Virus record (IMG/VR): IMGVR_UViG_3300033463_000041 | Coordinates: 53,147 to 117,146 of that record | Source: a virus | Lineage: Duplodnaviria > Caudoviricetes | Strand: one strand, 5' to 3' | Length of the DNA: 64,000 nucleotides | In this document: in pieces, positions 8,786-56,803 of the stretch | How the letters are laid out: every line of letters starts with the position of its first letter | Position numbering within the stretch: the stretch's first letter is position 1 | The notes under the pieces: model-generated | Databases searched by the model: none | What the model was told of the DNA's origin: nothing | The model's input: the letters and a program-made list of their open reading frames with translations, nothing else | Position numbers and translations under genes: made by a program

Positions 8786-8814
8786 AGCTTGAACCTGAAA
8801 CTTGAAACCTGCCA

Positions 8815-10314: not shown

Positions 10315-10326
10315 GTCGTTATTCTT

Positions 10327-11268
10327 TTATTTGTCGTGTATGCCCAACTTCCTCTCAATCTCCCTGTGAACCGTCTCAGCCCTTACCTTCCAGTCGTAGA
10401 TCTTCTCGTTGTCATTCAAGCAGACCATTCCCGCCTGCGGGTCACGGATAATCTCTGCCAGCCGCTGTGTCGGCGTTTCATGGTCGGTATAGTGCCTTGG
10501 TGGACGGTGCTCTACATACAAGCCCTCAAAGTGCTGGTACAGCATGTAGATATAGTGGTTGTAGCTTCGGTCGTTACGCTTCAGCGGCGACAGGTAATAG
10601 GTTATCTCGTCGCCATGCCTGCGCCATACCTCTTCACAGCTACTCTTCCTGATGGCAGCAAAGATATGCCCTGTGTCTGGCCACTTCGCCGTATAGTGCT
10701 TGCCGTAGCGCCCCGCTATCATGTTCAACTGATACATACACTTTCGTTGGAACACATTCGGATTCGGCGGATATACCCGCTCCTTTATCCTCTGGCACGG
10801 CAAGAGTGTGCCGTCCGGTTCTGCCTGACGGAAAAAATCCTCCGGCTGCAGCGGACTCAGCGGAAACATGTCGTCATTCCCGTAGATAAAGTATTCCGAC
10901 AGACCAGGTATCTTATGCAGGAACATCTCAATGCACGGACTCGCAAAGCATGGCAGCATGTTTGCCGGCATAAACTCCCGATGGAACGCCACCCTCACCT
11001 CCGGCTGTCCTGTGCCTTGCGGTTCTGCCGTAATGTTCTTCATCCACTCCTGCACCTGGCTTTCCTGTGCCAGCAGGATATAGATACGTCTGAGCCACGG
11101 CATAAACTTCATGCAGCACCTCACCAGCAGTTCCTCCGTACCCCACGAACGGAAACGCTCACTCATGGTTGCATCCCCTACATGGAAGCGTTGGTATTCC
11201 CGCCGCCACTCAGGGTCAGCGGGAAATACCATCGGTATAACGAGGTCTATATTAATATCTCTCTCCAT
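10327..11268 (-). CDS. Stealth family sugar-1-phosphate transferase
   Basis: CR1 IDLVIPMV..D..W, CR2 ELLVRC..FMPWLRRIYIL / IEMFLHKIPGLSEYFIYGNDDMF, CR3 H, CR4 MVCLND. Confidence 0.85.
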   Translation of the reverse strand: MERDINIDLVIPMVFPADPEWRREYQRFHVGDATMSERFRSWGTEELLVRCCMKFMPWLRRIYILLAQESQVQEWMKNITAEPQGTGQPEVRVAFHREFMPANMLPCFASPCIEMFLHKIPGLSEYFIYGNDDMFPLSPLQPEDFFRQAEPDGTLLPCQRIKERVYPPNPNVFQRKCMYQLNMIAGRYGKHYTAKWPDTGHIFAAIRKSSCEEVWRRHGDEITYYLSPLKRNDRSYNHYIYMLYQHFEGLYVEHRPPRHYTDHETPTQRLAEIIRDPQAGMVCLNDNEKIYDWKVRAETVHREIERKLGIHDK

Positions 11269-42949: not shown

Positions 42950-43132
42950 TTTTTTTTTGATTTCTCTACGGAAAACACACATTCCAACAAATATTTTTTT
43001 TTTGATTCGCGCACCTATCGCGACGCAGAACCCGCGCCTCGCTGGGCGGCGGAGCCTGCGGATCCGCCGTTCGGACTGGCTGCAAATATGCTGCAAAGGT
43101 GCAAAGGTGCAAAGGTTGCAAAGGTGCAAAAA
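42950..43132. other. Candidate packaging (pac/cos) or genome-end site
   Basis: T-tracts, GC-rich block with CGGCGGA/TCCGCCG hairpin, then tandem TGCAAAGG repeats; lies at the boundary with the early region. Confidence 0.35.
43081..43132 (+). repeat. Tandem 8-bp repeat TGCAAAGG (4 exact, 2 degenerate copies)
   Basis: Seen directly in the sequence. Confidence 0.85.
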
Positions 43133-43202: not shown

Positions 43203-43258
43203 GCAACAAAAAAAGTAGTTCTAAAATTTGGAAAGTAACAAAAAAAGTAGTATCTTTG
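43203..43258 (+). promoter_or_regulatory. Early-region promoter with two operator-like boxes
   Basis: TTTG 43227, TATCTTTG 43251-43258; GCAACAAAAAAAGTA 43203 and GTAACAAAAAAAGTA 43235. Confidence 0.7.
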
Positions 43259-43264
43259 CCAATG

Positions 43265-43895
43265 TCAGAACGACACAAGAACGGAAACACTGACAAAGAG
43301 TTCTCAAACATATTGATACATCGTACCGCACAAGCCGCAAATATCTTTGCAAGTTAGTGTGAAGAGCACGGAAATTCTACCACTTAGTAGTGGGCACGTG
43401 TGCCCAAATCAGAAAAGCAAGAGGCCGTGTTGATATAGAACTTTGCCTACATTGGTATGGCTTGTAAGGTAGTCCCACATTGGTGGGTAGGTGTATTAAT
43501 TGGACAACGGCTGCAACCTATGGATGTAGTGTATAGGTACGCAAATGCCCGTAAAACGGCATAAGCGGTAAAACGCTATCGTGTACCCAGTGCTATATCT
43601 GGCGGACTAATAATGTGGTCGGTTACAAACGAAAGGGAAATGCTATATAGCCGTATGCTATACAGCCCTGCGCCTGATGGGGCATAACGGAACGTATTGG
43701 ATAGTTCCGGAGTGGGCATACGTACAAAGTGGATAGGCCCGGGTAGGAACTATAGACGCCAGTCTATAGGTAGGTATGAATGAACGACTACCGGATTTAT
43801 CCGGCGGAAACTATAGGCCTATAGAGAAAGTGAGCACTATGTGCAGGGAGTTCGGCACTCCCCTATGGGCGCAATGATAGCAATGTCGCTATCAG
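43265..43895 (+). ncRNA. Putative large structured non-coding RNA or leader
   Basis: ~650 nt with no sense-strand ORF of 60 aa or more between a consensus promoter and the first early ATG; many perfect hairpins; tRNA-like minihelix at 43818-43870. Confidence 0.5.
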
Positions 43896-43911
43896 GTAAA
43901 ATCTTACAATT

Positions 43912-44538
43912 ATGGCAAACAAGAAGAACGTTCCCGCACAGAACACAAACAGTGCAGTATCCGTGAGTATCGAACTTTCCCGTACCGCTATGAAGAAAGC
44001 CCTGGGAGCAGTGTTTAACGAGACTTGCAAGTTCAAGCAGGCTTGTCGTGTATTCGACGGCATGGGTGCTTTCCCCGTACCTACCGGTAAGAACTCCACT
44101 ATGCGCTTTGACGAGCTGCTCAAGCCCCTTGCTATCAACTTTAAGGGCGGTCGCCTTGACCCCGAGAGTGTGAAGAGTGCATGGAAAGTCATGACCGCTG
44201 ACGGCTATATGGCTCTCTATAAGGATGTGCAGGGCTATGAGGCAGTAGAGGGCGACGAGGAGAAGTCACGCAAGGTGTACACCTGGAACTCGGAGAAGTC
44301 GCAGTATGACGGCGTATCGGTCAAGCGTATCGTGGCCGTGGAGAAGTGGAACGCAGGTCTTATCCTTGAGGGTATCTTGCAGGCAGCGTTTACCGCCTAC
44401 TATATCGACGAGGCAGCTAAGAGTCAGAAAGCATGGGACGAGTACGAGGGCGAGCTCTATGTCTTCGACAAGGTGCAGGACAAGGACGGCATCACTAACA
44501 AGCGCCACATCATCCGCAAGACACAGGTGGAGTTCTAA
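43912..44538 (+). CDS. Hypothetical early protein
   Basis: 208 aa, strong codon bias, A-rich initiation region. Confidence 0.75.
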   Translation: MANKKNVPAQNTNSAVSVSIELSRTAMKKALGAVFNETCKFKQACRVFDGMGAFPVPTGKNSTMRFDELLKPLAINFKGGRLDPESVKSAWKVMTADGYMALYKDVQGYEAVEGDEEKSRKVYTWNSEKSQYDGVSVKRIVAVEKWNAGLILEGILQAAFTAYYIDEAAKSQKAWDEYEGELYVFDKVQDKDGITNKRHIIRKTQVEF

Positions 44539-44653
44539 GGAACTCCCACCTATCCCCATCGGAGCCTGACATAGAGTGGAAACATGGCTATGGCGGTGGA
44601 CTTGTCGGTGTCCACCCAGGCACAAAGTATAACATCATAACATCGTGAAGACT

Positions 44654-45076
44654 ATGAGCGAAAGAACGACGAAGCAGATCTGCGCCCGCATGAGAGAAAT
44701 CAGCGCAAGCAGAACGTTCCACCATCAGCGCAAGCAAAGGGTGGAGAAGTGTGAAACTATCTATGAGCAGACTATGGTGGTCAAGGGTGGGCGCAAACCC
44801 AAGCACTTTATGACCTCCAAGCAGCTTATCGAAGCCTATGAGCAGGTGGAGTGGGAGACAGAGAACCGCCACCAGATGTTCGAGGCTGGCAAGGGTACGC
44901 GCTTCACTAAGCGCACTCATGTGAACAACGGAGCCCACTATACGAAGAGTGGTGGAGTAACTACGACCAAGCGACCTACCGCTCATGGCGAAGTGTGCTC
45001 TATCGGCAGACAGATTGTAGTCAAGCGGTTCAGCAACAGTCGCCTGACGTGTGTATGCAAGAGCATCGTGTATTAA
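44654..45076 (+). CDS. Basic hypothetical early protein
   Basis: ATG at 44654. Confidence 0.55.
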   Translation: MSERTTKQICARMREISASRTFHHQRKQRVEKCETIYEQTMVVKGGRKPKHFMTSKQLIEAYEQVEWETENRHQMFEAGKGTRFTKRTHVNNGAHYTKSGGVTTTKRPTAHGEVCSIGRQIVVKRFSNSRLTCVCKSIVY

Positions 45077-45249
45077 CAAGCAACAACTAACCGGCACCCA
45101 GCGACGGCTGAGAGCGTAGATATAGCCAGACACTTGAAAGCCCACCTCTATAGGACTATGGTGAGGTGGTGAGCGGAACGTGCAGCGCGAGGATCGAGAC
45201 GCTATCAGCAAGAAGCAGTGTGCCTAAAACAATATCGGAGGACAATCGT

Positions 45250-45618
45250 ATGAAGACTATCATCAAGATTATCGTGGCCGCTATGGTCGGCCTGTTCCTG
45301 GCAGCGTGGTCAGATGAGCACCACGTAGGCTATCGCTACGGATTCGTGGCTGTGTATTTCTTCGGCTCTATCGTGGTGTACTACGCCATCGAGTGCGCCA
45401 TCTCTGCAATGACGAAGCGCAAGCAGAACCGCTTCGACACTATCAAGCATCGTATGGGTAGCCGTAGCTATGGTCAGGCCGCCGTGTTCATCGGCACGGC
45501 TTGCCTCTATATGTGTACTCCCCAGCAGTGTGAAGAAATGTGCGATGACCTATGGCATCATGGTCAGCAGGCACACATGCAGATGCTGGAAGGTAATGAG
45601 ACATTCGACATTCTATAA
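45250..45618 (+). CDS. Membrane hypothetical protein
   Basis: Two hydrophobic helices; ATG at 45250. Confidence 0.6.
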   Translation: MKTIIKIIVAAMVGLFLAAWSDEHHVGYRYGFVAVYFFGSIVVYYAIECAISAMTKRKQNRFDTIKHRMGSRSYGQAAVFIGTACLYMCTPQQCEEMCDDLWHHGQQAHMQMLEGNETFDIL

Positions 45619-45640
45619 CATCAAATCAAATCTTACAATT

Positions 45641-45844
45641 ATGGCAACAAAGAGACAACAGGCGATGATTATCGCTATGGCCGCTATGGTCGGCACAAGT
45701 ACGGACATCATCGACCGCAACGCAGCAGCCGCTGCCCTGCGCGACATGAGAAGTGACATCGGTCACGACCAGACCTGCAGCATACAGGAAGACCCCTTCG
45801 ACTTTTCCTACACGTGGGATCCTACGGACGGAGATGTGGCATAA
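45641..45844 (+). CDS. Small hypothetical protein
   Basis: ATG at 45641 with the same 20-nt start context as gene 43912. Confidence 0.6.
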   Translation: MATKRQQAMIIAMAAMVGTSTDIIDRNAAAAALRDMRSDIGHDQTCSIQEDPFDFSYTWDPTDGDVA

Positions 45845-45863
45845 ACTATCGGGAGGAACGGCT

Positions 45864-46187
45864 ATGAAGAAGATTGAAGTATTGGAGTGGGGCTTGCAGC
45901 ATATTGCAGTCAACTATAAGATGGGTGCAAGTACCGAGGATTTGCAGAGCGAGGCCGAGGGTTGCATCTATGTGACCGAAGAGCATCCAGACGTATCGCC
46001 CGCACCTGTGAACGATGTGCAGATGCTATGCGACGACCTGGGCATAGATCGTGCCTATATGAAGACTTCGGAGTTCGGCATCGAGGTTACGCTGGATTGG
46101 CAGTGGCCTGAGACTATCGGACAGGAAGAGTACACCCCTACTGGGCATGAGATGTGGAAGCGCTTCGGCGTGGAGATTGGTTCTTAA
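45864..46187 (+). CDS. Acidic hypothetical protein
   Basis: ATG at 45864. Confidence 0.6.
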   Translation: MKKIEVLEWGLQHIAVNYKMGASTEDLQSEAEGCIYVTEEHPDVSPAPVNDVQMLCDDLGIDRAYMKTSEFGIEVTLDWQWPETIGQEEYTPTGHEMWKRFGVEIGS

Positions 46188-46193
46188 TCGGCT

Positions 46194-46742
46194 ATGACTA
46201 TGGCAACGAAGAAGCAGGCGGGGACTGAGCGCCCCTATACGTGGTACGAGTTCCTGAGCATCATCAGGAACATCGTGGAAGAACAGAAGATTGTGATGCA
46301 CGACGAGTTGGACTACTTTAATGCTAATTGGGAGCAGCAGGATAAGCCTATCGACATAGGTGTGTGGGACTGGCACCTTACCACGAAGACGGACTTCGGT
46401 GGCTGTGAGGGTGTCTATACGGACTTCTATGCTCATGTGGACTACAACGACGTGCGCCATGTGTTTACAGCTAAAACGCTGGACGGCAGCCGTGAGGCAT
46501 ACGTGAAGATGCACGAGTTTGCAGCCCGTGTGTGCCTGGTGGTATGTGACTATGTGAAAGAGCATGAGGACGAGTTCAACTGGACTGGCTTTGATGTGGG
46601 CTATTACAAGGACGGGGAACGTGTGACCTATATGCTGGCCCACAAGCACGAGAACGCTATGAAGTATGCCTTGGAACTGAAGCAGAAAGGCGAAAGGGCA
46701 TGGATACGTGACAATGCAGAACGAAAGTATGAGGAGGTATGA
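46194..46742 (+). CDS. Hypothetical protein
   Basis: 182 aa, DFGGCEGVYTD motif. Confidence 0.7.
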   Translation: MTMATKKQAGTERPYTWYEFLSIIRNIVEEQKIVMHDELDYFNANWEQQDKPIDIGVWDWHLTTKTDFGGCEGVYTDFYAHVDYNDVRHVFTAKTLDGSREAYVKMHEFAARVCLVVCDYVKEHEDEFNWTGFDVGYYKDGERVTYMLAHKHENAMKYALELKQKGERAWIRDNAERKYEEV

Positions 46743-47005
46743 AAAAAAGAATTTATCCCTACATGGCGGCTATGATGCTGGCTATGGCGAGCGACCCGTA
46801 TTTCTCTCTTGGACGCTCTAAGCGAACTATGAGCGAGGCAGAGCGCAAGCGTTACGAAGAGTATAAGCGCGAACGTGCTCACCGACTGAATCCTGTGGAT
46901 ATGTCGGAGCATGAGTTTATTATCAAGGGTGAGCGAATCATGGCGCATGACAAGAAGACCGCCAAGAAAATCTATGCTCGCCGACATCCAAAGAAAGGGA
47001 AGTGA
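46739..47005 (+). CDS. Hypothetical protein
   Basis: 88 aa; ATGA overlap with previous gene. Confidence 0.6.
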   Translation: MKKRIYPYMAAMMLAMASDPYFSLGRSKRTMSEAERKRYEEYKRERAHRLNPVDMSEHEFIIKGERIMAHDKKTAKKIYARRHPKKGK

Positions 47006-47007
47006 CT

Positions 47008-47211
47008 ATGAGCAATAGGGCAAGAATCAAGGTCAGGAGACCTAAGAAGTCAGTGCGCTACAAGGAGGAGGTTACGCTCACCAAGAAGTACACGAGCTTT
47101 AACATCTTTACCCGTGACGGGGATAACCGCACCGTCACAAGCGAGAAACCTATGACGCTGAACGAAGCGCTTTACCACTATCACGCGCTATCTATCAGTG
47201 GAAACGAATAA
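47008..47211 (+). CDS. Small hypothetical protein
   Basis: ATG at 47008. Confidence 0.5.
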   Translation: MSNRARIKVRRPKKSVRYKEEVTLTKKYTSFNIFTRDGDNRTVTSEKPMTLNEALYHYHALSISGNE

Positions 47212-47236
47212 CAACAATTTAAAACGTAAACGAATT

Positions 47237-47353
47237 ATGAAAGCAAGAACTATCAGAATGAACAAGGTGCGCAAAGCTATCGCATCAGTATATCACGTAA
47301 GTAACGCAGAGGCACAGGAAATGGTGCCCATGTTTATACGTAAAGCAGCATAA
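47237..47353 (+). CDS. 38-aa peptide (not in ORF track)
   Basis: MKARTIRMNKVRKAIASVYHVSNAEAQEMVPMFIRKAA; A-rich initiation region. Confidence 0.45.
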   Translation: MKARTIRMNKVRKAIASVYHVSNAEAQEMVPMFIRKAA

Positions 47354-47386
47354 GTTATTAACAGTCAAAATTCGGAGGACGAAAGT

Positions 47387-48307
47387 ATGACACAGAATTT
47401 GCAGGGTGCCGACCTTATCGGCAAAGTGATTGTAGTAAACGGCAGTAATGTCAAGTATGTAATCAAGTCAGTGGACGGCGACAAGCTGATGACGGACTTC
47501 ATCATGGGCGACCGCACTATGCCCTGCCCCGTGCCTATGAGCCAGGTGGAGAGCATGGTGGCAGCAGGTAAGTGGACTATCGAGGGCGAGACCGCCAGCG
47601 AGAACAAGGCAGAGGACGTAAAGCCTGAAGCTACCGCTACCGAGGAAGCTACCGCCGAGGAGCCTACCGCAACTGAGGAGGTGGAAGAGGTTATCGACGA
47701 ACCAGAGCCTGCGCCTGCTCAGACCGTCAAGATGAAGACGGAGATGCCGAAGGACAAGGCTGAGGAGAAGGCTACACCTAAGCCACAGAAGCCACAGACT
47801 AAGGCTAAGAAGAAGGAGCAGGAAGCGCCTGCCGCTGGTCGTCTGCGCTACGAGACCTACACCACGAAGAAGGGTAAGACGGGTGCGAAGATCGTTGGCT
47901 TCAACGAGACGGATGCTGCCTATTTGGCTGGTCCCGAGCTGCACGGCTCTAAGGCGTGGGAAAATGACAAGCAGGGCAACAAGACGTTCTGTCTGCTGTT
48001 CAGTCATCGCTATGCCAAGGCTGCAGAGGACGTATGCAAGGCACTGAACGCTGGCAAGAGCGTGGCAGACTGCCAGGCTATCATTGACGGATGCACCGAG
48101 GAGCGTGCCCAGCGTCGTGAGGAATGGCGAGCAAGACGTGACGCACGCGACAATGCCGCTACCAACGAGGGCGAGGCTACCGCCACCACCGAGAAGCTCT
48201 ATACCGAGGCAGAGGTGCGCAAGGCGTTCGCTACACTGGCCGAGGCAAGCGGTGTGGACGTTAAGGAGTTTGAGCCTATCATCGAGGCTATGCGGGCAGC
48301 TGCATAG
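47387..48307 (+). CDS. Hypothetical early protein with E/A/T/P-rich linker
   Basis: 306 aa, strong codon bias, ends RAAA. Confidence 0.75.
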   Translation: MTQNLQGADLIGKVIVVNGSNVKYVIKSVDGDKLMTDFIMGDRTMPCPVPMSQVESMVAAGKWTIEGETASENKAEDVKPEATATEEATAEEPTATEEVEEVIDEPEPAPAQTVKMKTEMPKDKAEEKATPKPQKPQTKAKKKEQEAPAAGRLRYETYTTKKGKTGAKIVGFNETDAAYLAGPELHGSKAWENDKQGNKTFCLLFSHRYAKAAEDVCKALNAGKSVADCQAIIDGCTEERAQRREEWRARRDARDNAATNEGEATATTEKLYTEAEVRKAFATLAEASGVDVKEFEPIIEAMRAAA

Positions 48308-48317
48308 CTATAACGAC

Positions 48318-48373
48318 CACGGATTGCACGGATGACACGGATTGATATCTGTGTTGTCTGTGCTATCTGTGTG
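48318..48373. repeat. 9-bp CACGGAT / ATCTGTG inverted repeat element
   Basis: (CACGGAT)x3 followed by (TCTGTG)x3; related run at 41997-42020. Confidence 0.55.
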
Positions 48374-48413
48374 ACAACTAAGCAGAATTACAAACATCAA
48401 AAATCTTACGATT

Positions 48414-48860
48414 ATGGGACTGGATTTAAGTGCAATCAGAGCAGCTGCTGCAAAGATGAAGCAGGAGCAGGAACAGCCAAAGACGAACACGAATAGCACG
48501 AATAGTGCTAAAACAAAGGCTGAGCCTAAAGCTAAGACGCAAACTAAGAGTGCGCCTAAGACTGACACGCCCAAGACCAAGGGCGGTGCGAAGTACGTCA
48601 TCCCTGCCGAGTTCAAGCAGGCTATCGAAGACCACTTGAAGGGTAGGGCAGACATGAAGGAGAAACTATCGAAGAAAGGCAAGTCGATTGACGGCTGCTG
48701 TGATTATATATTCGACGTGATGCGCAAGCGGGCTGAAAAGGAGCGCGGAGGCAAGAGCGCCGTGGGCCTCTATGCCAACCCTGACGAAATATTCGGTCTG
48801 GCTTGTCACTACTATGACGAAAGCGAAGAGGCCTTGAAAGAGGAACTGAAAAAGAAATAA
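48414..48860 (+). CDS. PcfK-like protein (AcrIIA9-related family)
   Basis: FKQAIEDHL..RA..KSIDGCCDYI..DEIFGLACHYYDE; paired with PcfJ. Confidence 0.7.
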   Translation: MGLDLSAIRAAAAKMKQEQEQPKTNTNSTNSAKTKAEPKAKTQTKSAPKTDTPKTKGGAKYVIPAEFKQAIEDHLKGRADMKEKLSKKGKSIDGCCDYIFDVMRKRAEKERGGKSAVGLYANPDEIFGLACHYYDESEEALKEELKKK

Positions 48861-48863
48861 GCT

Positions 48864-50195
48864 ATGGCAAGGAAACTGACAGCATTTGAGAAACAATGCA
48901 CGACTATCAATAACCGACTGAGCGGGTATCCAAAGGGTGACAAGGAGCGCAAGATATACGGCAGCGTATATCAGCCTGGTATTATTACCCGTATGTATCG
49001 TCGTCGCAGGGTGTGGTATTGCAGCGAGTGTGGCAGCGAGATTGGGGTGCTGACACAGGAGGAGTGCCCAGTATGTCACAAGAAATGGACGGCGGCGTGT
49101 TGTGATGAGAAAGGTCGTGAGGTTGGCTATCACATGACGCTGGAAGCCAAGGGCGATATTCAGTTGACACGCATCTATCGTGTGGAACGTACTACGCACT
49201 ATGGCAAGCAGGCCACAAGGTTTGTGTGGGAGGTGGAGCGTATCATGTATAGTCCGACTGGTGAGCGCAAGGTGTTTGCCCGTAACATTCAGGCGATGTC
49301 GTGGTACTACGATGCTTTCAGCTGTGGCTCGCCTATCAAGATGAAGCGTGAGTGCAACCACTCGCAGTATTCTGCATCGAAGTCGCAGTTGCGCTATAAC
49401 CTGAACGTGTGGAGCTACGACATTCAGAGTTTGACGGAGCAATGGCGCTATAAAGATATCTCTGGACTGATGGAAGACTTCAAGGGCGATACCAGTGCGC
49501 TGCGAGTGATTGCCTATCCGTGGGCTGAGACCATGCGCAAGACGGGGCAGGAAAAGTTGTTCCGCTATCTGGTAAATGAAATGGAGTCGCTGCCTACTGG
49601 TTGTCACCATGCGCTGAACATCTGTGCTCGTAACAAGTACACGATAAAAGATCCGTCGCTATGGCTCGACCACTTGTGGCTGCTGAAGTATCTCAGACTT
49701 GACACGCACAATGCCCACTATGTATGCCCCAAGGATTTGAGGACACAGCATAATGAGCTGCTGGAGCGTAAGCGTCATGAGGACGAACGCAGGGCGGCTA
49801 TTCGCCGTGAGCGTGAGACGCAACGGAAGTTGGAGCGTATGGAGAAAGAGAAGACGGCCTATCGGAAACGGTGGGCAAAGGTGCTACCGCTGACGCTATC
49901 AGGTCAGAACCTGAATATCCGTCCGCTGCAATCGGTGGAAGAGTTTGCGGAAGAGGGCAACGCCATGCACCACTGCGTATTCTCTATGGACTACTACAAG
50001 AAGTCCACCAGTCTGATATTATCGGCAAAGGACAACGACGGCAACCGACTGGCTACTATCGAGTACAACACGAAGAACAAGGAGATTGTGCAGTGCCGTG
50101 CGGCATGTAACAAGGTACCTGAGCGCGACGCTGAGATACGTCAGTTGATAACCTCTCACAGGGCAGACTTCCAGCGATTGCTGAAAGCTGCCTAA
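48864..50195 (+). CDS. PcfJ domain protein
   Basis: N-terminal CSECG/CPVC; C-terminal PLQSVEEFAEEGNAMHHCVF..YY..ATIE..IVQCRAACN. Confidence 0.8.
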   Translation: MARKLTAFEKQCTTINNRLSGYPKGDKERKIYGSVYQPGIITRMYRRRRVWYCSECGSEIGVLTQEECPVCHKKWTAACCDEKGREVGYHMTLEAKGDIQLTRIYRVERTTHYGKQATRFVWEVERIMYSPTGERKVFARNIQAMSWYYDAFSCGSPIKMKRECNHSQYSASKSQLRYNLNVWSYDIQSLTEQWRYKDISGLMEDFKGDTSALRVIAYPWAETMRKTGQEKLFRYLVNEMESLPTGCHHALNICARNKYTIKDPSLWLDHLWLLKYLRLDTHNAHYVCPKDLRTQHNELLERKRHEDERRAAIRRERETQRKLERMEKEKTAYRKRWAKVLPLTLSGQNLNIRPLQSVEEFAEEGNAMHHCVFSMDYYKKSTSLILSAKDNDGNRLATIEYNTKNKEIVQCRAACNKVPERDAEIRQLITSHRADFQRLLKAA

Positions 50196-50231
50196 TACCT
50201 ATATCGAAGTTGAATTTTAAACTTTACGACA

Positions 50232-51278
50232 ATGGCAAAGAAAAAATTTACGATGAACGACTCGCAGAAGGAGAAGTATGCGGAGTTGTTCGAGGCTGAA
50301 CTGAACGCAATGGAGCGTAGCGACTGGACGCAACCGTGGGTGTCGCCCAATATGGGTGCGCCGTGTAACCTCTACCGCCGTCGGCATCCCTACCGCAAGA
50401 GCAATGCCTTCTGGCTGGCTATGCTGATGCAGGTGAAGGGCTGGAGCACGCCCTACTTCCTGACGAAGACGGACTTGGTGAACGAGGACGGCAGTCGCAA
50501 GTATGACGGTCTGCAGGCTAACTGCACGATGGTGACTGACGAGCAGGGTATGCCGAAGTTCGACGACAACGGCTGTCCTGTGATGGAGTACGAACGGAGA
50601 TTCCCCGTATTCTTCTACAAGCCTATCTACAAGGACAAGGACGGCAACACCGTGAGCGAAGAGGACTATCGGGCCATGAGCGACGAGGAACGTCAGGAGT
50701 TGAAGGTGTTCTTCTACCGCACTCACTATCTGGTGTACAACCTGGACCAGACGAACTTCAAGGAACTCTATGCCGACGACTACGAGGCGATGGTGGCGGT
50801 TCCTGAGCACGACTACCAGACAGGCCAGCGTGACGAGGTGCTGGAGCGGATGATCGCTGGCGAATGGATTTGTCCTATTCACTTCGGCGGTCACTCGGCT
50901 CACTACAGCCCTATGGAGCACCATATCCGACTGCCGGAGCGTTCACAGTTCCTGGGCGATGCGAAGTTCTATGCGGTAGCTCTGCATGAGATGGCGCACT
51001 CTACGAAGAAAGACCTGCGCCGCGAGTTGGACGAGCCCTACGAGGAATTTGTGGCAGAGCTGACGGCAGCGTGTGTATGCAGCCGTCTTGGTGTCGGCAA
51101 GTTGCTGGACGAGCAGCATATTGCCTATGTGGCCTCGTGGCGCAAGGCTCTCCGCGACGACAAGGACTTCATCCCTCGCGTCATCGACCATGTGCAAATG
51201 GCCTCTAACTTCATCTTCAACCGCTACGATGCCGTGGCGAAGAAGATGGAAGGTCCGAAGCTGCTGCAAGCAGCGTAA
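50232..51278 (+). CDS. ardC: ArdC-like antirestriction protein (ssDNA-binding domain + zincin-like domain)
   Basis: WTQPW..PCN..Y..N..L, YLVYNLDQT, AHYSP..HHIRLP..F, LHEMAHST, YEEFVAEL, YVASW. Confidence 0.85.
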   Translation: MAKKKFTMNDSQKEKYAELFEAELNAMERSDWTQPWVSPNMGAPCNLYRRRHPYRKSNAFWLAMLMQVKGWSTPYFLTKTDLVNEDGSRKYDGLQANCTMVTDEQGMPKFDDNGCPVMEYERRFPVFFYKPIYKDKDGNTVSEEDYRAMSDEERQELKVFFYRTHYLVYNLDQTNFKELYADDYEAMVAVPEHDYQTGQRDEVLERMIAGEWICPIHFGGHSAHYSPMEHHIRLPERSQFLGDAKFYAVALHEMAHSTKKDLRRELDEPYEEFVAELTAACVCSRLGVGKLLDEQHIAYVASWRKALRDDKDFIPRVIDHVQMASNFIFNRYDAVAKKMEGPKLLQAA

Positions 51279-51286
51279 CACTATCG

Positions 51287-51311
51287 AGGGGTCGTCGCCT
51301 GACGGCTCCTC
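51287..51311 (+). other. Intergenic hairpin after ardC
   Basis: GAGGGGTCGTC GCCT GACGGCTCCTC (stem with G-U pairs). Confidence 0.45.
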
Positions 51312-51346
51312 AAAATCTATCAAAATCTTACAAAAAATTATCCAAA

Positions 51347-51598
51347 ATGGAGACTATCAAGTATGACGTAACGGCGGCGCATCTATGTAAGACAGACTGC
51401 CCGTTTTGTGTAGGCGACCAGTGGAAGAAGGTTGGTGCCTATGAGTGTACCGAACGTTGCCCTGCCTTTGTCAGTCATGACATGGAGCAGCAGATCGTAG
51501 TATGCAACCCCGAAAAGGTTCCCTATGCCCGCTTCGTATGGAGCGATAAGATGCGAAAGAAATACCCCAATCTGGGAAAAGATAAAATCAAAAAGTAA
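51347..51598 (+). CDS. Cys-rich small protein
   Basis: CKTDCPFC..KVGAYECTERCPAF..VVC. Confidence 0.6.
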   Translation: METIKYDVTAAHLCKTDCPFCVGDQWKKVGAYECTERCPAFVSHDMEQQIVVCNPEKVPYARFVWSDKMRKKYPNLGKDKIKK

Positions 51599-51605
51599 AA
51601 CGACT

Positions 51606-52247
51606 ATGAACTATTACGTGATTGACGATGTGAAGACCAAGGTGTATAGCATATTCGGATCTTCGTATAAAAAGATGCCTAATGCTCCTGCTATTGTAGC
51701 TGTGAGCGACTACAACAAGAAGAACGTTGAGAATGGCCGTGAGTTTACAACCGACGGCATTGTCTATGCAGACGGCACTTTCTGCTTCGGGCCGAGCAAG
51801 AGGATTGTTTCCTACGGCTCATGTAGAGAGGCAACACCTGAAGAGGTGCAACGGCTGGCCGACTGTGCGGCAAGTGTGAACCTGGCCTATATGACGCTGG
51901 AGCAGGAGCACAAGAATATCTGGACTAAGAAGACGTGGACTACGACCTACGAGGCTCTGGCCTATATTTCGACGGACGCTATGCGCTTCCGCTTGAATGG
52001 TGAGATTGTGGGCTGGAAAGAGGTTGAAGCCTACGAGCCTGCCGAGGGTATGCACTTCGCCTGGTACCACGACAACGGCTATAGCTATTTGGGCGTGGAT
52101 CCTGCGAAGAAAGAAGACTGGATAGCTGCTGTACGCAAAATCAAGAAAGTGTGGTATGGCAATCTGTACGGCATCGTGTATCTGGAGAATGGCGTTATCG
52201 ACGTTCGCCAGTGCAGCAAGAGATATAGTGAAGTGAGTAACACATAA
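51606..52247 (+). CDS. Hypothetical protein
   Basis: ATG at 51606. Confidence 0.65.
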   Translation: MNYYVIDDVKTKVYSIFGSSYKKMPNAPAIVAVSDYNKKNVENGREFTTDGIVYADGTFCFGPSKRIVSYGSCREATPEEVQRLADCAASVNLAYMTLEQEHKNIWTKKTWTTTYEALAYISTDAMRFRLNGEIVGWKEVEAYEPAEGMHFAWYHDNGYSYLGVDPAKKEDWIAAVRKIKKVWYGNLYGIVYLENGVIDVRQCSKRYSEVSNT

Positions 52248-52260
52248 ACGAGTTACGACT

Positions 52261-52752
52261 ATGAATACAGTAGAAATCATCATGCAGCAGAAGAAGATTG
52301 CTGCCGAGAAGGAAAAGGCCGAGCGTAAATTGGCCTATGACACAATCAAGGAGTGGGTGGAGAAGCATGTAGACAAGTTCGCCCACGAGTTACTGAACAA
52401 TATAGCCAGACGCTTTTCGGCTGGTTCGTCTATGGCGCGCTATCGCTGCGTCTCAGGTTTCTGTAACCACCATCTGGGCGAGGACTATCCAGAGAACGTG
52501 GGAAGATGGTGGAAGGTGGAGTACTGGAACAACTTCAAGCAGAAAGAGTATGGATTCGACTTCGTGGAGCGGTTCTTCAATCAGGCTCCTATCGAAAAGA
52601 GCGAATACGCTGAGAATATCTGTTGTGCTTTCGTATCGCAGTTGGTGTTCCATACTGCGCTGCCTGAACTGCTCAGGAGCGAGGGCTTTGTGGTAAAGCA
52701 CGACGGCTGCGGATGCTGTGAAATGATTGAGGTGAGACTACCTGAAGCATAG
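52261..52752 (+). CDS. Hypothetical protein
   Basis: 163-aa ORF. Confidence 0.65.
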   Translation: MNTVEIIMQQKKIAAEKEKAERKLAYDTIKEWVEKHVDKFAHELLNNIARRFSAGSSMARYRCVSGFCNHHLGEDYPENVGRWWKVEYWNNFKQKEYGFDFVERFFNQAPIEKSEYAENICCAFVSQLVFHTALPELLRSEGFVVKHDGCGCCEMIEVRLPEA

Positions 52753-52764
52753 GAGGATAAGACT

Positions 52765-53154
52765 ATGGGACAATGTTATTCTATAGAAATCAAGGCGAGG
52801 TTCAAGGACGAAAACGGCGCAAAGAAAGCGCTGCAGGCGAAGCTCGACAGGCATGAAGAGGAGCACGTAAACTACAACCTCGACCACTTCACAGGTGAGC
52901 TTGGTCTGTCTACCGACAACCTGCACGACCTGATGGGCATATTCTTCGGCGGCTGGAAGGGAAAGTTGGAACCTTCGATCACCGACGACTGGGAGTATGC
53001 CGACTTCGATGCCTCCTATGGCTGGGAGAGTATTATGATGGAAGCCTTCGAGGTGATCGCGCCCTACCTGGCCGACGGCTCCGTGATTAAAATCTATCCC
53101 GACTCCGGCTGCGACCACGGAACGGTCAGGAACGGGAAATGCAAATGGGCATAA
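52765..53154 (+). CDS. Hypothetical protein
   Basis: 129 aa, FDASYGWE motif. Confidence 0.65.
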   Translation: MGQCYSIEIKARFKDENGAKKALQAKLDRHEEEHVNYNLDHFTGELGLSTDNLHDLMGIFFGGWKGKLEPSITDDWEYADFDASYGWESIMMEAFEVIAPYLADGSVIKIYPDSGCDHGTVRNGKCKWA

Positions 53155-53171
53155 CTAAAACGAGTGAGACT

Positions 53172-53561
53172 ATGGAGAAGAAAGATTTCTATGGCGACAT
53201 CAGGAATCTGCACAAGGAAATTGTGGCGGAGATTGTAAAGTTGATGGTGGAGCATGACGTGAAGGAGGTTGACCTACTCGGTAGTAGTGCCGACCACGCT
53301 TACGTTATCGGCGCACCATTCGACTGGGATGTGGACTACATGGAGGCCGAGGTCTCTAAGGTGTACTACGAGGACGGGCAGTTGGTGCTTGACGTTTGCT
53401 GGAACATCGACACGTTCGAGTTGGCTGAGCAGAACGAGAATGGTGACATTGGCGATGCCTATACAGATGTAAAGGCCAATGACTTCACCTGCATCAAGCC
53501 CTGTGCTGGCATTGATTCGGTGTATGAGAGTGTATGGCAAGTGTTGGAACAAAACAAGTAA
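53172..53561 (+). CDS. Acidic hypothetical protein
   Basis: ATG at 53172; very D/E-rich. Confidence 0.65.
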   Translation: MEKKDFYGDIRNLHKEIVAEIVKLMVEHDVKEVDLLGSSADHAYVIGAPFDWDVDYMEAEVSKVYYEDGQLVLDVCWNIDTFELAEQNENGDIGDAYTDVKANDFTCIKPCAGIDSVYESVWQVLEQNK

Positions 53562-53566
53562 CCACT

Positions 53567-54688
53567 ATGACACAGAAAGAGTATATCCAGATGGTGAACG
53601 AAGCGAAGCAACGGAGCTTTGAGTATTATGTGCTGTCGAAGCCGACTATCAGCGACGCGACGTTCGATGCGATGGTGGACTGCATAGAGTTGGCGGAGTT
53701 GGAGCATCCTGAATGGACGCTACCTGACTCGCCGACGCAGTGTGTAGGCAGTGACCTGTCGGGTAACGGCAAGCGACTGGTGCGTCACCGCACACCGATG
53801 CTATCGTGCCAAAAGGCACAGACAACAGAGGCGGTTGAGAAATGGATTGCCGCTACGGAGAAGAAGTTGAAGAAGCAGGACGCCGGTATCTACTACGAAC
53901 TGGAATGGAAGTTGGACGGCATCAGTTGTTCGCTGGTGTATCAGGACGGCACGCTGATCAGCGCCGCTACCCGTGGCGACGGCAAGCAGGGCAGCGACCT
54001 GATGGAGCACGTGAAGATGATACCGACGGTGCCTATGACGATTACCGAAATGGGTAGGGTAGAGGTGCGCGGCGAGATTGTATGTCCCAAGTCTCACCTG
54101 CCGTTTATGTCAGAGAGCTATGCCGACTGCAGAAGTGCAGCAAGTGGCATCTGTGGCAAGAACTATGTGACCGCCGACACGACGCTGCTGGAGTTCGTGG
54201 TGTGGCAGTTGGAAGGCGACGAAATCGGCACAGAGGCTTGTGCTATCGACATTGCCGAGGATTTGGGCTTCAAGACCTGTGGCTATAAGGGTTGCTGGAC
54301 GCCAAATGTTATCAAGCGTCTGGGTGAGTTCGCTATCGAGCGTGACGCACTGGACTGGCCTACTGACGGTGTGGTGGTGAAGATAAACACCAAGCCGCTG
54401 GCTGAGAGGATGGGTTATACCGACCATCATCCGAAAGGCTGCATCGCCTACAAGTTCCCACCGCAGAAGACGACGACCACGGTAAGGCGCATAGAGATAA
54501 CCGTTGGTGCTACGGGCCGTCGTACCCCTGTCTGCTGGTTTGATCCTGTGACTATCGGGGCACGTACTATGGAGAAAGCCAGTCTTGGCAGTGAGGACAC
54601 GATGGAGAAGCTCGGCGTCTATGAGGGCTGCACCGTAGAAGTGGGCCTGAGTAACGATGTGACGCCGAAAGTGTACAGAGTAATCTAA
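53567..54688 (+). CDS. Minimal NAD+-dependent DNA ligase (Ia, adenylation and OB domains only)
   Basis: YYVLSKPTISDATFD, PDSPTQCVG, H..PMLS, EWKLDG, ATRGDG..G, EVRGE, DGVVVK, IAYKF, VGATGR.TP, NDVTPKV; ends right after motif VI. Confidence 0.88.
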   Translation: MTQKEYIQMVNEAKQRSFEYYVLSKPTISDATFDAMVDCIELAELEHPEWTLPDSPTQCVGSDLSGNGKRLVRHRTPMLSCQKAQTTEAVEKWIAATEKKLKKQDAGIYYELEWKLDGISCSLVYQDGTLISAATRGDGKQGSDLMEHVKMIPTVPMTITEMGRVEVRGEIVCPKSHLPFMSESYADCRSAASGICGKNYVTADTTLLEFVVWQLEGDEIGTEACAIDIAEDLGFKTCGYKGCWTPNVIKRLGEFAIERDALDWPTDGVVVKINTKPLAERMGYTDHHPKGCIAYKFPPQKTTTTVRRIEITVGATGRRTPVCWFDPVTIGARTMEKASLGSEDTMEKLGVYEGCTVEVGLSNDVTPKVYRVI

Positions 54689-54700
54689 AACGATACGACT

Positions 54701-55099
54701 ATGGAAAAGATTGATGCACCCATTGACAACAAAAACTTGATGGAAGACCCGTTCGAGGATGAGGTCTTCGGAGATTTCTATGCAGGGTCTGACCATCGTA
54801 AGAATGGTGTACGGCATCTGATTGGTTTGGCGGAAGTTTACGACGAGGAATTTCCTAAGTGCGTGAATTATTCGGCATACGTCGATGTGACTTGGACTTA
54901 TGGTGCAAGTCATATCACTATCAAGGTGATTGGCGTTTCTGCCAGTGAGGACTTTGAGGAAACGAAAAACGAAGTCTTAGAGCACTATAAGAAGGTGTTC
55001 AAGGCTTGGGAGTGTGAAGACAATCCCGACCTAAAGGTAGAGTTCTATCAGCTGAACAATCAGCTGAACGTGATATTCTATTTTGAAGTCTGCGATTAA
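54701..55099 (+). CDS. Acidic hypothetical protein
   Basis: 132-aa ORF. Confidence 0.6.
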   Translation: MEKIDAPIDNKNLMEDPFEDEVFGDFYAGSDHRKNGVRHLIGLAEVYDEEFPKCVNYSAYVDVTWTYGASHITIKVIGVSASEDFEETKNEVLEHYKKVFKAWECEDNPDLKVEFYQLNNQLNVIFYFEVCD

Positions 55100-55139
55100 G
55101 CGAGAGCAGAGCCATGCTTGCATGAGCTATGCCGAGCGT
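55093..55139 (+). repeat. 47-bp direct repeat copy 1 (REP-like)
   Basis: CGATTAAGCGAGAGCAGAGCCATGCTTGCATGAGCTATGCCGAGCGT. Confidence 0.85.
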
Positions 55140-55203
55140 GAGCAGACTCGACGAAAGTCAAAGTGAATGATAAACTTTGCACATATTGTAAGATTTTTGT
55201 TTC

Positions 55204-55240
55204 GGACTGGCCTGCTGTGACAGCACGCCGGTCCTCTTTT
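55204..55240 (+). terminator. Terminator-like hairpin
   Basis: GGACTGGC.TGCTG TGA CAGCA.GCCGGTCC followed by TCTTTT. Confidence 0.5.
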
Positions 55241-55275
55241 GGTGAGAAAATAATGTTTTAAAACACGATATAGCT

Positions 55276-56691
55276 ATGGAGTATTTTAAGAATTGCATGA
55301 CCCAAGAGCAGTTGGAACAGGAGCACCGCAAGCTGGTAATCAAGATGCACCCCGACCGCAACCCCGACAACCCTAACGCTACGGCTGAGTTTCAGGAGAT
55401 GCAAAGCCAGTATGAGGAACGCAAGGCTGAACTGAACGGCGACTATAGCAAGGCCCGAAAGGGTAGGGAGCGTCGCGAACGTGAGGACAGGGAGCGACGG
55501 GAGCGTGAACGCCGTGAGCAGGAGCGCCGCAAAAAGGAGATGGCTATCGACCAGGCTCGAAAGAACAAGCAGCGCAGCCACTTGGAATGGAAGCAGGGCG
55601 AGTATGTCTATGCCCGTATGGTGAACTTCACCCGCAGTATGTTCGAGTGGGATAACCTAAGTGGTGACGAGTTGCTGCATGTGGTAATCAAGATGGGCGT
55701 AAAGGAAGAGACGGTGGTAAGGATTGAGCACATCGTGGAGTGCCAGTCGTTCGATATCCTGAACGCCAGTCTGAGCAAGCTGCTGAACAGCATGGAGACC
55801 GGCTGCATCTATGGTGGCCGTGAGACGTTGCAGGATGCCGACCCCGCCAATGGCATCTATAAGAAGCAGACGGTGGGCAAGGTGGTGATGTTCCGTAGCG
55901 AACAGTACTGCGTGTTCGGCAATCCGATGGGCGACCAGACGATATCCGACTACTATATGCCTGTAGGCTATGAGACGCTGTTTGGCAGTCAGATAGACCG
56001 CATCAAGGCGCACATTGCCTATGAGGAACAGGAGAAAGCACGATTGGAGGCTGAGCGTATGGCCCGTATCGAGGCCGAGCAGCGTCCGATGATAGCGGAG
56101 TGGGAGCCGAAGCTGATAGCACTGAGTCGAGGACTGACGGCCAAGGAGCAGAAAGAGGTGGCTATGAGCAACCTGAAGACGATGCTCAAGGCGAAGTTCC
56201 CCGGTGCGAAGTTCACTGTGAAGAGTGACAAGTATGGCGACGTGGTGGTGCGCTGGGAGGATGGCCCGACATGGCAGGCCGTGCGTGAGGTGACGAAGCT
56301 GTTTGATGCCTGGGAGGCTATCGACGCCAAGACGGGCAACCAGACGCTGACGCCGTGGATGGAGCACTACGGACGGATGTGTTTCTCAGTGACCGAGACG
56401 GAGCGCAAGATGTCGGTACTGACTAAGGCCCGCATCCTGCAGCAGCTTGGTAGCGTGACCGAGGCTTTCACCACATCGGCTATCGACGACGAGGTGACGG
56501 TATCTGATTTCGACTGGCTGATGCTCCACCTGCTTGTCGGCATCGAGATAGGCAAGGGCAATCAGGAGTGTATGAGTACGATACATGCCGACGGCAGGCG
56601 CACAGTAGCCATCAATGCGGCTGTGAACTTCATATTCAGCCACTCTGACTATTGCAAGCAGACCAAGGCCAAAAAGGCTAAGGCTGCTTGA
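55276..56691 (+). CDS. J-domain + LPD29 (polyvalent-protein domain) protein
   Basis: KLVIKMHPDRNP..AEFQEMQSQYE (HPD motif); NLKTMLKAKFPGAKFTVKS..VRWEDGPT. Confidence 0.75.
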   Translation: MEYFKNCMTQEQLEQEHRKLVIKMHPDRNPDNPNATAEFQEMQSQYEERKAELNGDYSKARKGRERREREDRERRERERREQERRKKEMAIDQARKNKQRSHLEWKQGEYVYARMVNFTRSMFEWDNLSGDELLHVVIKMGVKEETVVRIEHIVECQSFDILNASLSKLLNSMETGCIYGGRETLQDADPANGIYKKQTVGKVVMFRSEQYCVFGNPMGDQTISDYYMPVGYETLFGSQIDRIKAHIAYEEQEKARLEAERMARIEAEQRPMIAEWEPKLIALSRGLTAKEQKEVAMSNLKTMLKAKFPGAKFTVKSDKYGDVVVRWEDGPTWQAVREVTKLFDAWEAIDAKTGNQTLTPWMEHYGRMCFSVTETERKMSVLTKARILQQLGSVTEAFTTSAIDDEVTVSDFDWLMLHLLVGIEIGKGNQECMSTIHADGRRTVAINAAVNFIFSHSDYCKQTKAKKAKAA

Positions 56692-56704
56692 TACTTGAAC
56701 TTTC

Positions 56705-56751
56705 CGATTAAGCGAGAGCAGAGCCATGCTTGCATGAGCTTTGCCGAGCGT
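56705..56751 (+). repeat. 47-bp direct repeat copy 2 (1 mismatch)
   Basis: Identical to 55093-55139 except one base. Confidence 0.85.
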
Positions 56752-56803
56752 AAGGAAAGTCAACGTAGTTAAACATGAAACTTGAAACAAAAGATAAGAC
56801 AAT

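Follow-up and report, generated by a model that had tools for sequence, protein, structure and literature searches.

Why should one strand of one part of a phage genome be crowded with a four-letter word that the opposite strand carries far less often? The question is raised by the final 64 kb of a single 117,146-bp contig of a tailed virus (IMG/VR record IMGVR_UViG_3300033463_000041); this 64,000-nt stretch is called the window hereafter. An earlier reading of its letters, the original prediction, had proposed that CTAT is enriched on the + strand of positions 43500-56800, with a density decaying away from the start of a putative early region, as a selected polar signal in first-entering or first-transcribed DNA. 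The contig encodes phage proteins (a 3,789-aa tape-measure protein, a head-maturation protease, an endolysin and tail proteins), the plasmid-type proteins ParA, Rep3 initiator and an HU-like protein, as well as several DNA methyltransferases and a reverse transcriptase. We compared the genome of the window (G0) with two complete relatives, G1 (140,421 bp) and G2 (129,669 bp), using throughout our own gene calls based on open reading frames (ORFs). The feature is real: the word is under selection, polar and graded, and is shared throughout a family of large rumen phages. As to its use, we lean, tentatively and with more doubt than conviction, to CTAT followed by C, G or A being a polar word of an early transcription unit, read single-stranded and most likely on RNA as CUAU(S).

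A one-strand word in genes and spacers

Exact counting on the + strand gave 173 CTAT and 34 ATAG between 43500 and 56800. The approximate hand counts behind the original prediction were nearly all exact: 11 CTAT in 43570-43895 (11 by hand), 22 in 44580-45700 (~22), 28 in 45700-47300 (~28), 16 in 47300-48900 (~16) and 16 in 48900-50200 (~17), beside 8, 2, 3, 3 and 1 ATAG, respectively, ATAG being rare in the coding part as had been said (1-3 per listed coding segment). The background of one CTAT per ~150-190 nt supposed for other + strand genes was also close, the counts being one per 133 nt in 1-1200, one per 173 nt in parA and one per 233 nt in rep. Per kb, there are 0-6 CTAT at 1-43 kb, 10-18 at 43-56 kb and 5-9 at 56-64 kb. 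The enrichment of the proposed span thus stands and its end point does not, since the tract continues to the end of both window and contig (Table 1). The first 2 kb of the G0 contig still hold 13 CTAT, and the occurrence of the word at both contig ends is consistent with a circularly permuted assembly, without proving one.

From 43,912 to the window end, the + strand holds all ORFs that score positive for coding potential, and antisense ORFs there score negative. Codon-level controls were run on an early set of 23 ORF calls and a late set of 21 genes, with 500 shuffles. On sense strands, CTAT occurs 9.75 times per kb in the early genes and 3.71 times per kb in the late ones. Permutation of synonymous codons within the early genes gave 95.9±7.3 CTAT against 185 observed (z 12.2), the best of the 500 shuffles yielding 116, and redrawing their codons from late-gene usage gave 68.0±6.9 (z 16.9). 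The excess therefore persists under the codon-preserving shuffles that had been suggested as a check, none of which reaches the observed count, and codon usage and amino-acid composition are ruled out as its cause. The late genes have 112 CTAT against 85.0±7.6 in shuffles (z 3.6). When all tetramers were ranked, CTAT came first in the early set and was unremarkable in the late set, while other context biases were common to both (TGCC high; GATC, GGCC and CTAG low).

The word is also indifferent to frame. With the codon border marked by a hyphen, the early genes contain 95 NNC-TAT, 72 NCT-ATN and 12 CTA-T, so that most occurrences straddle codon borders. We defined capable sites as dipeptide positions able to carry CTAT; in the first ten genes the word is used at 36/65 of these for NNC-TAT, 34/48 for NCT-ATN and 8/28 for CTA-T, as against 49/237, 57/212 and 6/162 in late genes. 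The TAT:TAC ratio in the first ten genes is 36:14 after C and 7:8 otherwise; the corresponding values in late genes are 49:75 and 49:64. CTAT is as dense in the spacers among the first genes as within those genes (14 CTAT and 3 ATAG in 759 nt of G0), which bears out the earlier remark that the word occurs inside genes and spacers alike. Because the shuffles are exceeded, all frames are used, TAT is favoured only after C and the spacers are rich, selection must act on nucleotides and not on codons.

The word itself was defined on 58 genes pooled from the first 12 kb of the tract in the three genomes, in which 364 CTAT stand against 183 expected (z 18.9) and the neighbour words CCAT (0.47x), CGAT (0.68x) and CTGT (0.79x) are depleted. 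Its 3' flank is graded (C 2.82x, G 2.06x, A 1.46x, T 1.03x) and its 5' flank flat (1.7-2.2x), and the word is therefore CTAT followed by any base but T. These ratios bear on one alternative, namely that there is no reader and that a strand-asymmetric, context-dependent bias of mutation or repair, tied to heavy transcription of the block, produces the excess. Such a bias would have to reach CTAT by chemically different routes, from CCAT, CGAT and CTGT, and to turn TAC into TAT only after C, while other C/T codon pairs move in the opposite direction (GAC 77% vs 69%, TTC 72% vs 65%); nor would the 3' flank effect be expected from mutation alone.

Translation start sites are a part of the pattern, as the original prediction had allowed, and a part only: 21 of 50 early genes (window, L017, L027) start with CTATG, and CTAT is spread evenly over gene deciles, so that an initiation signal was rejected as the sole source. 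Eleven of these 21 starts read GACTATG, and GACTATG or CTATG starts may be a separate start-context signal. A codon shift driven by phage tRNAs was likewise ruled out, the whole contig having 0 tRNA genes. Among the other tetramers, GATC is strongly avoided in early genes (22 vs 74 expected), late genes (40 vs 124) and host genes (297 vs 900) even though the phage encodes a Dam-like methyltransferase (L001:10236-10727), and CTAG is strongly avoided in phage and host, with 0 against 18 expected in the early genes.

Gradient, family conservation and host background

In G0, capable-site use falls from 78/141 in the first 5 kb to 16/92 at 25-30 kb, the figure outside the tract being 292/1574; across the three genomes it is 0.49-0.55 in the first 5 kb over a baseline of 0.13-0.19. 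The positional gradient that had been claimed is present in G0 (Spearman rho with distance -0.79), and the related phages, as had been asked of them, decay in the same way (-0.74 in G1, -0.71 in G2). G1 and G2, in which the first gene of the tract has 61-62% identity, each have exactly one tract, tract length being 23-30 kb, and in both it stops close to where the co-directional gene array does. Counts of CTAT per 2 kb run 24, 31, 18, 25, 16, 12, 13, 7, 11, 12, 8, 14, 13, 10, then 2, 5, 0 in G1, and 24, 33, 29, 15, 26, 18, 16, 14, 11, 12, 15, 5, 12, 12, 10, 7, 5, 3 in G2. For genes of at least 150 aa, the median CTAT per kb inside and outside the tract is 10.3/4.3, 6.4/3.0 and 7.6/2.2 in the three genomes, and the DarB-like gene of the window, which lies far along the tract, has 33 CTAT against 16.8±3.5 in shuffles. 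The tract was found in all five related loci fetched, in which the first gene of the tract (gene 1) has 87% identity in two cases and 61-62% in three: the 10 kb upstream show background counts, both CTAT and ATAG go up in the kb preceding gene 1, and downstream of it there are 10-18 CTAT vs 0-5 ATAG per kb. Surviving codon shuffles, using all frames and spacers, graded, and recurring in five of five related loci, the excess has the properties of the selected, polar signal at the nucleic-acid level that had been proposed.

Searches for further members added none: blastn of 43500-51400 against phage records gave no match, a metagenome scan returned only the same two lineages, a pattern search with the leader led back to the same 4 viral contigs and hit 0 genome contigs, and the DarB-like query found nothing in viral contigs. 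A tie to the gene families themselves was rejected, as six of six distant loci with PcfJ or DarB-like genes (L004-L009) lack a CTAT tract. The same loci bear on the idea that CTAT marks loading or target sites for a co-injected motor or for the DarB-like methyltransferase, or else one-strand nick or modification sites that the early NAD-dependent ligase would repair. The tract encodes a DarB-like methyltransferase-helicase of the Eco57I/N6_Mtase type, whose members recognise asymmetric sites, NAD-ligase-like proteins occur in G0 and G1, G1 adds a BRCT protein, and phage T5 offers a precedent for one-strand nicks at a short word. Both loci with a DarB-like protein of 40-50% identity (L008, L009) are without a CTAT tract, CTAT being the only word examined in them, and an onset placed at a promoter would be left unexplained. 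We give this explanation the smallest share of all those considered here.

Single sites turn over freely. Against the contig of a Prevotellaceae bin, at 93-96% nucleotide identity, 146 of 170 CTAT are kept (0.859, rank 124 of 232; all tetramers 0.864), 24 are lost and 15 gained, so that no conservation of CTAT at the level of sites was found in this comparison. This is the pattern expected of many weakly selected sites, of which the density, and not the individual members, is maintained. Gaps of less than 20 nt between CTAT are depleted relative to random draws of capable sites (P 0.027, <0.0005 and 0.007 in the three genomes); because such gaps are rarer than under this null, neighbouring sites appear redundant and not cooperative, which suggests that they act singly. 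Both results return to the mutational alternative, for which the indifferent retention of single sites speaks, together with a mild host bias of the same sign and with the shift of silent sites in the tract to G and T on the same strand (see below). Neutral turnover of single sites is also predicted by weak selection on density, and avoidance of close pairs, like the 3' flank effect, is not what mutation alone would yield. Weighing these points together, we consider a readerless bias a long shot. Four segments of the window (45237-45435, 45866-47342, 51324-51606 and 52263-52755) have no counterpart in the 93-96% relative, indicating cassette replacement, and are as CTAT-rich as their surroundings; several assemblies break within them.

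The host was sampled through 240 kb of a Prevotellaceae bin that holds a 97%-identical phage contig (L031-L042). Its genes carry 1148 CTAT vs 891 in shuffles (1.29x; 5.1 per kb on sense strands), an excess ratio equal to that of the phage late genes, and ATAG occurs on host sense strands at 1.9 per kb; the general biases (TGCC high; GATC and CTAG low) are common to bin and phage. Genes presumed to lie on the leading strand have 5.96 CTAT per kb vs 4.73 for lagging-strand genes, the strand being assigned from a weak GC skew over 6 contig pieces. The genes for RpoB, RpoC, NusG and four ribosomal proteins range over 2.3-7.8 CTAT per kb, with 4.7 for rpoB, 4.1 for rpoC and 2.3-3.1 for L11/L1/L7/L12, whereas the first early genes reach 10-22. 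No mimicry of host genes with high expression is seen: since these genes show no excess, the tract is not tuned to high expression, and since the phage late genes show none either, the word is specific to the early block.

These host values also separate the tract from the nearest analogue of its gradient, the codon gradient of plasmid leading regions, where, according to excerpts of Shaw et al. 2026 (PMC13478746), codon adaptation falls with distance from oriT. Both cases would concern a first-expressed part of an element, rich in anti-defence genes, with a compositional signal falling with distance and with overlapping gene families (ArdC, methyltransferases). In the plasmids, however, the signal is adaptation to host codons, whereas here a single strand-specific word also fills spacers and is missing from highly expressed host genes (2.3-7.8 vs 10-22 per kb), so that optimal host codon usage does not describe it.

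The closest described pattern comes from Chi. Terminally clustered, oriented Chi sites are reported for phages LLS and MD8, with 20 of 23 sites in active orientation in LLS and 32 of 32 in MD8, and P1 relies on RecBCD to join its terminal repeats (excerpts of Zheng et al. 2025, PMC12315714). CTAT could by analogy be a Chi-like signal for a host nuclease of the AddAB/RecBCD type, protecting or recombining a DNA end at the tract, whether a packaging end or a P1-like terminal redundancy. The AddAB enzymes use short Chi sites, of 5 bp in Bacillus subtilis, and the Chi of Bacteroides was still unknown in 2010, as stated in parts of PMC2887965. As in LLS and MD8, the word is short, stands nearly all on one strand in one part of the genome and is independent of frame within genes; a gradient would be natural for a signal to be met soon after entry, the ParA and Rep3 genes suit an element kept as a plasmid, and the host has its mild excess of CTAT. 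Unlike the 8-nt Chi with its reader RecBCD, the word has 4-5 nt, shows almost no strand skew in the host, is anchored at a promoter and not at a known DNA end, and is about 100 times denser. The host over-representation is mild (1.29x), the skew slight and of weak strand assignment, and at 4-5 copies per kb in any DNA the word would hardly separate self from foreign. A nuclease entering at the leader end would moreover read ATAG, which is rare on host sense strands; no known genome end lies at the leader, nearby contig breaks falling in the strain-variable cassettes, and IMG/VR classes the records as linear, without end repeats. The Chi-like option of the original prediction was thus not confirmed, the host genome lending it weak support, and we consider it improbable.

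Promoter, leader and candidate readers

The onset of the tract is as well defined as its strand. All lineages share the layout of a 1-kb spacer before gene 1 (Table 1), in which the box TATCTTTG fits what we take to be the -7 promoter box of Bacteroidota, TAnnTTTG. The 381 nt upstream of the first box contain one CTAT; the one-strand tract begins at the leader, where CTAT and ATAG are mostly paired together, and past the leader CTAT stands on its own. The array upstream of the promoter has the core TGCAAAGG also in G1 and G2, where there are 4 repeats with a 13-nt period, so that the core is conserved and the spacing is not; it may be bound by a regulator, an origin factor or a packaging factor. 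In the leader, the hairpin formed by the word and its complement has the counterparts CTATAGGC..GCCTATAG in L011 and L012 and CTACAGAC..GTCTGTAG in L013, and changes on both sides occur in 29 of 114 predicted pairs, a number of which slid controls (0-4) and all of 500 shuffles fall short, in a sample of four sequences from two deep lineages whose structure was predicted from the same alignment. No Rfam family matched the window at gathering score, nor the leader at E<=10, and the leader could itself be a new large non-coding RNA.

Two palindromes of the leader, CTATAGGCCTATAG and GCTATATAGC, are built from the word and invite another explanation, in which CTAT sites would be oriented duplex-binding sites of a repressor or silencer that nucleates on the CTATAG palindromes and shuts the early lytic operon in a plasmid-prophage state. 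Uniform orientation relative to transcription, a density decaying from the nucleation region and the plasmid-maintenance genes of the element would suit it. Stoperators of mycobacteriophage L5 and cluster A, which are 13-bp spacer sites bound by a known repressor, with ~30 in each genome, are likewise many asymmetric sites all oriented with transcription. CTAT differs from them in having 4-5 nt, too few for recognition in duplex DNA, and in lying mostly inside genes, evenly over gene deciles. Close pairs of sites are avoided and not favoured, and co-variation of the leader palindromes as helices speaks for single-strand structure over operators. We put little weight on this explanation, about as little as on mutation bias.

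In 4 metatranscriptome runs (3 studies) there are RNA contigs over the leader, starting at 43276-43285 in three runs and at 43383 in the fourth (X24) and ending at 43639-43863; being assembled contigs, they show neither transcript ends nor levels, and neither uncovered stretches nor leader depth is evidence of levels. They hint weakly at transcription of the leader. The statement of the original prediction that the block is first-transcribed finds some backing in the Bacteroidota-type -7 box, the leader covered by RNA contigs and the gene content, from which we infer it. The onset at a promoter, the sequestration of the word in the leader and the end of the tract near that of the co-directional array suggest that a transcription unit defines the tract.

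A scheme of early-transcript marking can be built on this anatomy. Transcription would be initiated at the host-type promoter TATCTTTG, and the first ~600 nt would fold into the conserved leader, where the word would be locked in helices with its own complement. From gene 1 onward, the message would present a lone sense-strand word every 60-100 nt, in any frame and in spacers, seldom less than 20 nt from the next. Words of 4-5 nt are typical of single-strand readers, and a reader of this specificity, perhaps a small RNA-binding domain or a sequence-specific endoribonuclease, would engage the sites and thereby decide how long early messages last or how they are used, as T4 RegB does through GGAG. 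If the payoff scales with earliness and level of expression, or with the amount of operon lying downstream, selection would fade along the 23-30 kb for that reason. The RegB endoribonuclease targets GGAG in early mRNAs, mainly in translation-initiation regions; the common trait is a tetranucleotide that marks early apart from late transcripts, and CTAT has it in density and in z score alike. The differences are that CTAT saturates coding sequence, which to our knowledge RegB sites have not been reported to do, and that the Pfam and PHROGs scans brought up no RegB-like gene. Four kinds of reader had been put forward originally, and none was confirmed, the binding site for an ejected or early protein included; the CUAU tag on mRNA is the best fit among them, by its anatomy.

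Several results weigh against a message-borne word. Pfam and PHROGs scans of the submitted ORFs revealed no RNA-binding protein or ribonuclease family, most early proteins matching nothing. Gene 1, modelled by AlphaFold2 with a predicted local distance difference test score (pLDDT) of 83.8, has no fold match in the PDB (best Foldseek E 0.22; best VIA Z 3.4). Its candidacy as the reader was rejected on this ground, together with 0 hits in a PDB profile search, scattered chance hits of Pfam on 20 members and an empty result from a second atlas query; membership of the T4 RegA family ('Translat_reg') was rejected as well, the language-model score of 0.76 being at chance level and neither Pfam nor PDB profiles supporting it. 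Use of the word at nearly half of the capable sites is far more than a single cleavage site in each message would call for. In the tail of the G1 tract, three genes run in reverse, all with positive coding scores, and across them the tract strand carries 8 words vs 2.7 expected (P 0.007, one locus); this does not fit a signal tied to each gene's own message and fits a signal on a DNA strand at least as well as a read-through transcript. Only within the tract (43912-59000; L017; L027-L028) do four-fold silent sites of the sense strand lean to G and T, their GC skew being 0.00 to +0.25 in the first 15 kb of the tract vs -0.13 to -0.23 in other + strand genes, and an excess of G over C and T over A is equally expected of a strand exposed as single-stranded DNA. 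The 3' flank preference with a flat 5' flank, finally, is also the format of a primase site. An anti-Rho composition, which the skew might suggest, was dropped, as other regions of + strand genes have a similar whole-sequence GC skew.

Some of these points define the strongest competitor, according to which CTAT marks primase start sites on a strand that becomes single-stranded in replication or in an R-loop: 5'-CTAT-S-3' would template the primer pppAUAG, the 3' base being recognised and left uncopied, and the + strand would be the lagging-strand template, or the displaced strand of an R-loop, going rightward from the leader. T7 gp4 primase sites, 5'-(G/T)2GTC-3', are pentanucleotides with T at the start and a non-copied 3' base (excerpts of PMC12839067), and the specificity of DnaG is for trinucleotides (parts of PMC2978363); the likeness is one of format, a 4-5-nt word on one strand, within the 3-5 nt usual there, whose 3' base matters while its 5' side is unconstrained. 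The spacing of the sites, with short gaps depleted, the G- and T-rich silent sites of the + strand within the tract alone, and the persistence of the word on that strand across the reverse genes of G1 would follow. The cumulative GC skew has its minimum at the tract start in 3/3 genomes, and the repeat array with A/T tracts lies just upstream, with the Rep3 initiator 5 kb upstream. Gene orientation changes at the same point, however, and the minimum thus cannot count as separate evidence for an origin; heavy transcription and exposure as lagging-strand template would account for the skews equally. The extent of the tract tells against primase: the T7 gp4 and DnaG sites serve the whole lagging-strand template, and each 117-140-kb genome is enriched in CTAT over a single fading tract 23-30 kb long. 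A leftward fork would take the sense strand of the late genes as its template, and this strand is without excess (112 vs 85, a ratio as in host genes), and one site per 60-100 nt is much denser than Okazaki spacing, which is far wider. No primase is linked to the tract. A DnaG-type zinc-ribbon protein encoded next to the G1 tract is a weak match (E 2.9e-4), and was rejected as a conserved neighbour, having no counterpart beside the G0 tract and lying far from the tract in G2. The primase site suggested originally therefore agrees with the format of the word and disagrees with its restriction to 23-30 kb; it was not confirmed, and we regard it as unlikely while taking it seriously. Whatever probability all these readings leave goes to something not listed among them.

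Looking beyond the reader, it is conceivable, though we would not bet on it, that tailed phages carry an undescribed layer of information: a short, family-specific word, near-saturating, graded, spread over all frames and spacers of the first-expressed operon, anchored at a promoter and sequestered in a large structured leader RNA, which would be read on the nascent transcript or on a displaced DNA strand and would time, protect or prime establishment. The CTAT of these Prevotellaceae phages would then be a single example. Literature searches for a strand-specific tetranucleotide in phage early genes, or for 'CUAU', found nothing relevant, which does not show its absence from print. With about 300 weakly selected sites in each genome, the word alters the choice of synonymous codons over 20% of the genome, and does so only in anti-defence and establishment genes. 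In Bacteroidota, where phage gene regulation, Chi and primase specificity are poorly known, identifying the reader would show how a step in the first minutes of infection, or in the establishment of a plasmid-prophage, is controlled; were the word a Chi or primase site, it would define that specificity for Prevotellaceae. In practice, it offers a simple computational marker of early regions and leader RNAs in metagenomic phages.

Gene content of the tract and other observations

The genes of the tract (Table 1) form a set (PcfK/PcfJ, ArdC, NAD-ligase, DnaJ-LPD29, DarB-like) such as mobile elements typically carry in their establishment or leading regions, and to judge by this content the tract would cover an early anti-defence operon.

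Table 1. Positions in the window of the CTAT-rich tract, its upstream elements and its annotated genes
Feature	Position	Strand	Remarks
Spacer before gene 1			In order: terminator-like hairpin and T runs; GC-rich piece; TGCAAAGG array; A tracts; two TATCTTTG boxes; ~600-nt leader
Tandem array, core TGCAAAGG	43087-43128	.	4-5 copies, 8-9-nt period; ~125 nt upstream of early promoter
Promoter box TATCTTTG	43251-43258	+	Second copy at 43342-43349; invariant in 6-genome alignment
Conserved structured leader, promoter to gene 1	43263-43911	+	12 CTAT and 10 ATAG, mostly paired together in helices
Leader palindrome GCTATATAGC	43642-43651		Built from the word
Leader hairpin CTATAGAC-GCCA-GTCTATAG	43750-43769	+	Word and complement; compensatory changes between lineages
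Leader palindrome CTATAGGCCTATAG	43811-43824		Built from the word
CTAT(V)-rich tract	43912-64000	+	~16 per kb falling to ~6 per kb; reaches window and contig end
Gene 1, 208 aa	43912-44538	+	Marks the phage family; 20 homologues; 8 CTAT vs 2.5 expected in shuffles
PcfK-like gene	48414-48860	+	Pfam PF14058, 1.2e-07
PcfJ-like gene	48864-50195	+	Pfam PF14284, 5.6e-32
ArdC-like anti-restriction protein	50232-51278	+	Single-stranded-DNA-binding N-domain and zincin peptidase; Pfam PF08401, PF18818; PHROG 7245, 2.4e-34
NAD-dependent DNA ligase-like protein	53534-54688	+	Adenylation and OB domains only; Pfam PF01653, 1.1e-44; PF03120, 3.3e-15
DnaJ and LPD29 (polyvalent-protein domain) protein	55276-56691	+	Domains by Pfam
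DarB-like N6-methyltransferase and SNF2 helicase, 1694 aa	56804-61888	+	PHROG 10089, 3.7e-250; Pfam N6_Mtase, SNF2-rel_dom, Helicase_C

The tracts of the relatives hold further genes. That of G1 also encodes a protein with MutS domain I (L017:5617-6990) and the stand-alone BRCT protein (L017:14579-14845), and that of G2 an HNH gene and a TnpB (IS605 OrfB) gene (L028:4432-5961); the Pfam scan of both adds an aspartyl protease. In the window, the DnaJ-LPD29 gene is bracketed by two copies (55098-55138 and 56711-56750) of a hairpin element of ~45 nt with the core GCAGAGCCATGCTTGCATGA, the outer stems of which differ. Rfam gave 0 matches for 55050-56800 at E<=10. Many RNA contigs with unrelated flanks, one of them at a depth of 295, match this element, which is therefore widespread in rumen RNA.

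Outside the window, the reverse transcriptase gene (L003:8079-9266, genome 48079-49266; PHROG 1423, 1.1e-78) possibly belongs to a diversity-generating retroelement, and the two genes that follow it have 8.6-9.2 CTAT per kb. Within the window, the late operon includes, beside the tape-measure gene, three genes at 7919-11268 (phosphoribosyltransferase/kinase-like, family-2 glycosyltransferase and Stealth-CR2), whose products may modify the virion, the host surface or DNA.

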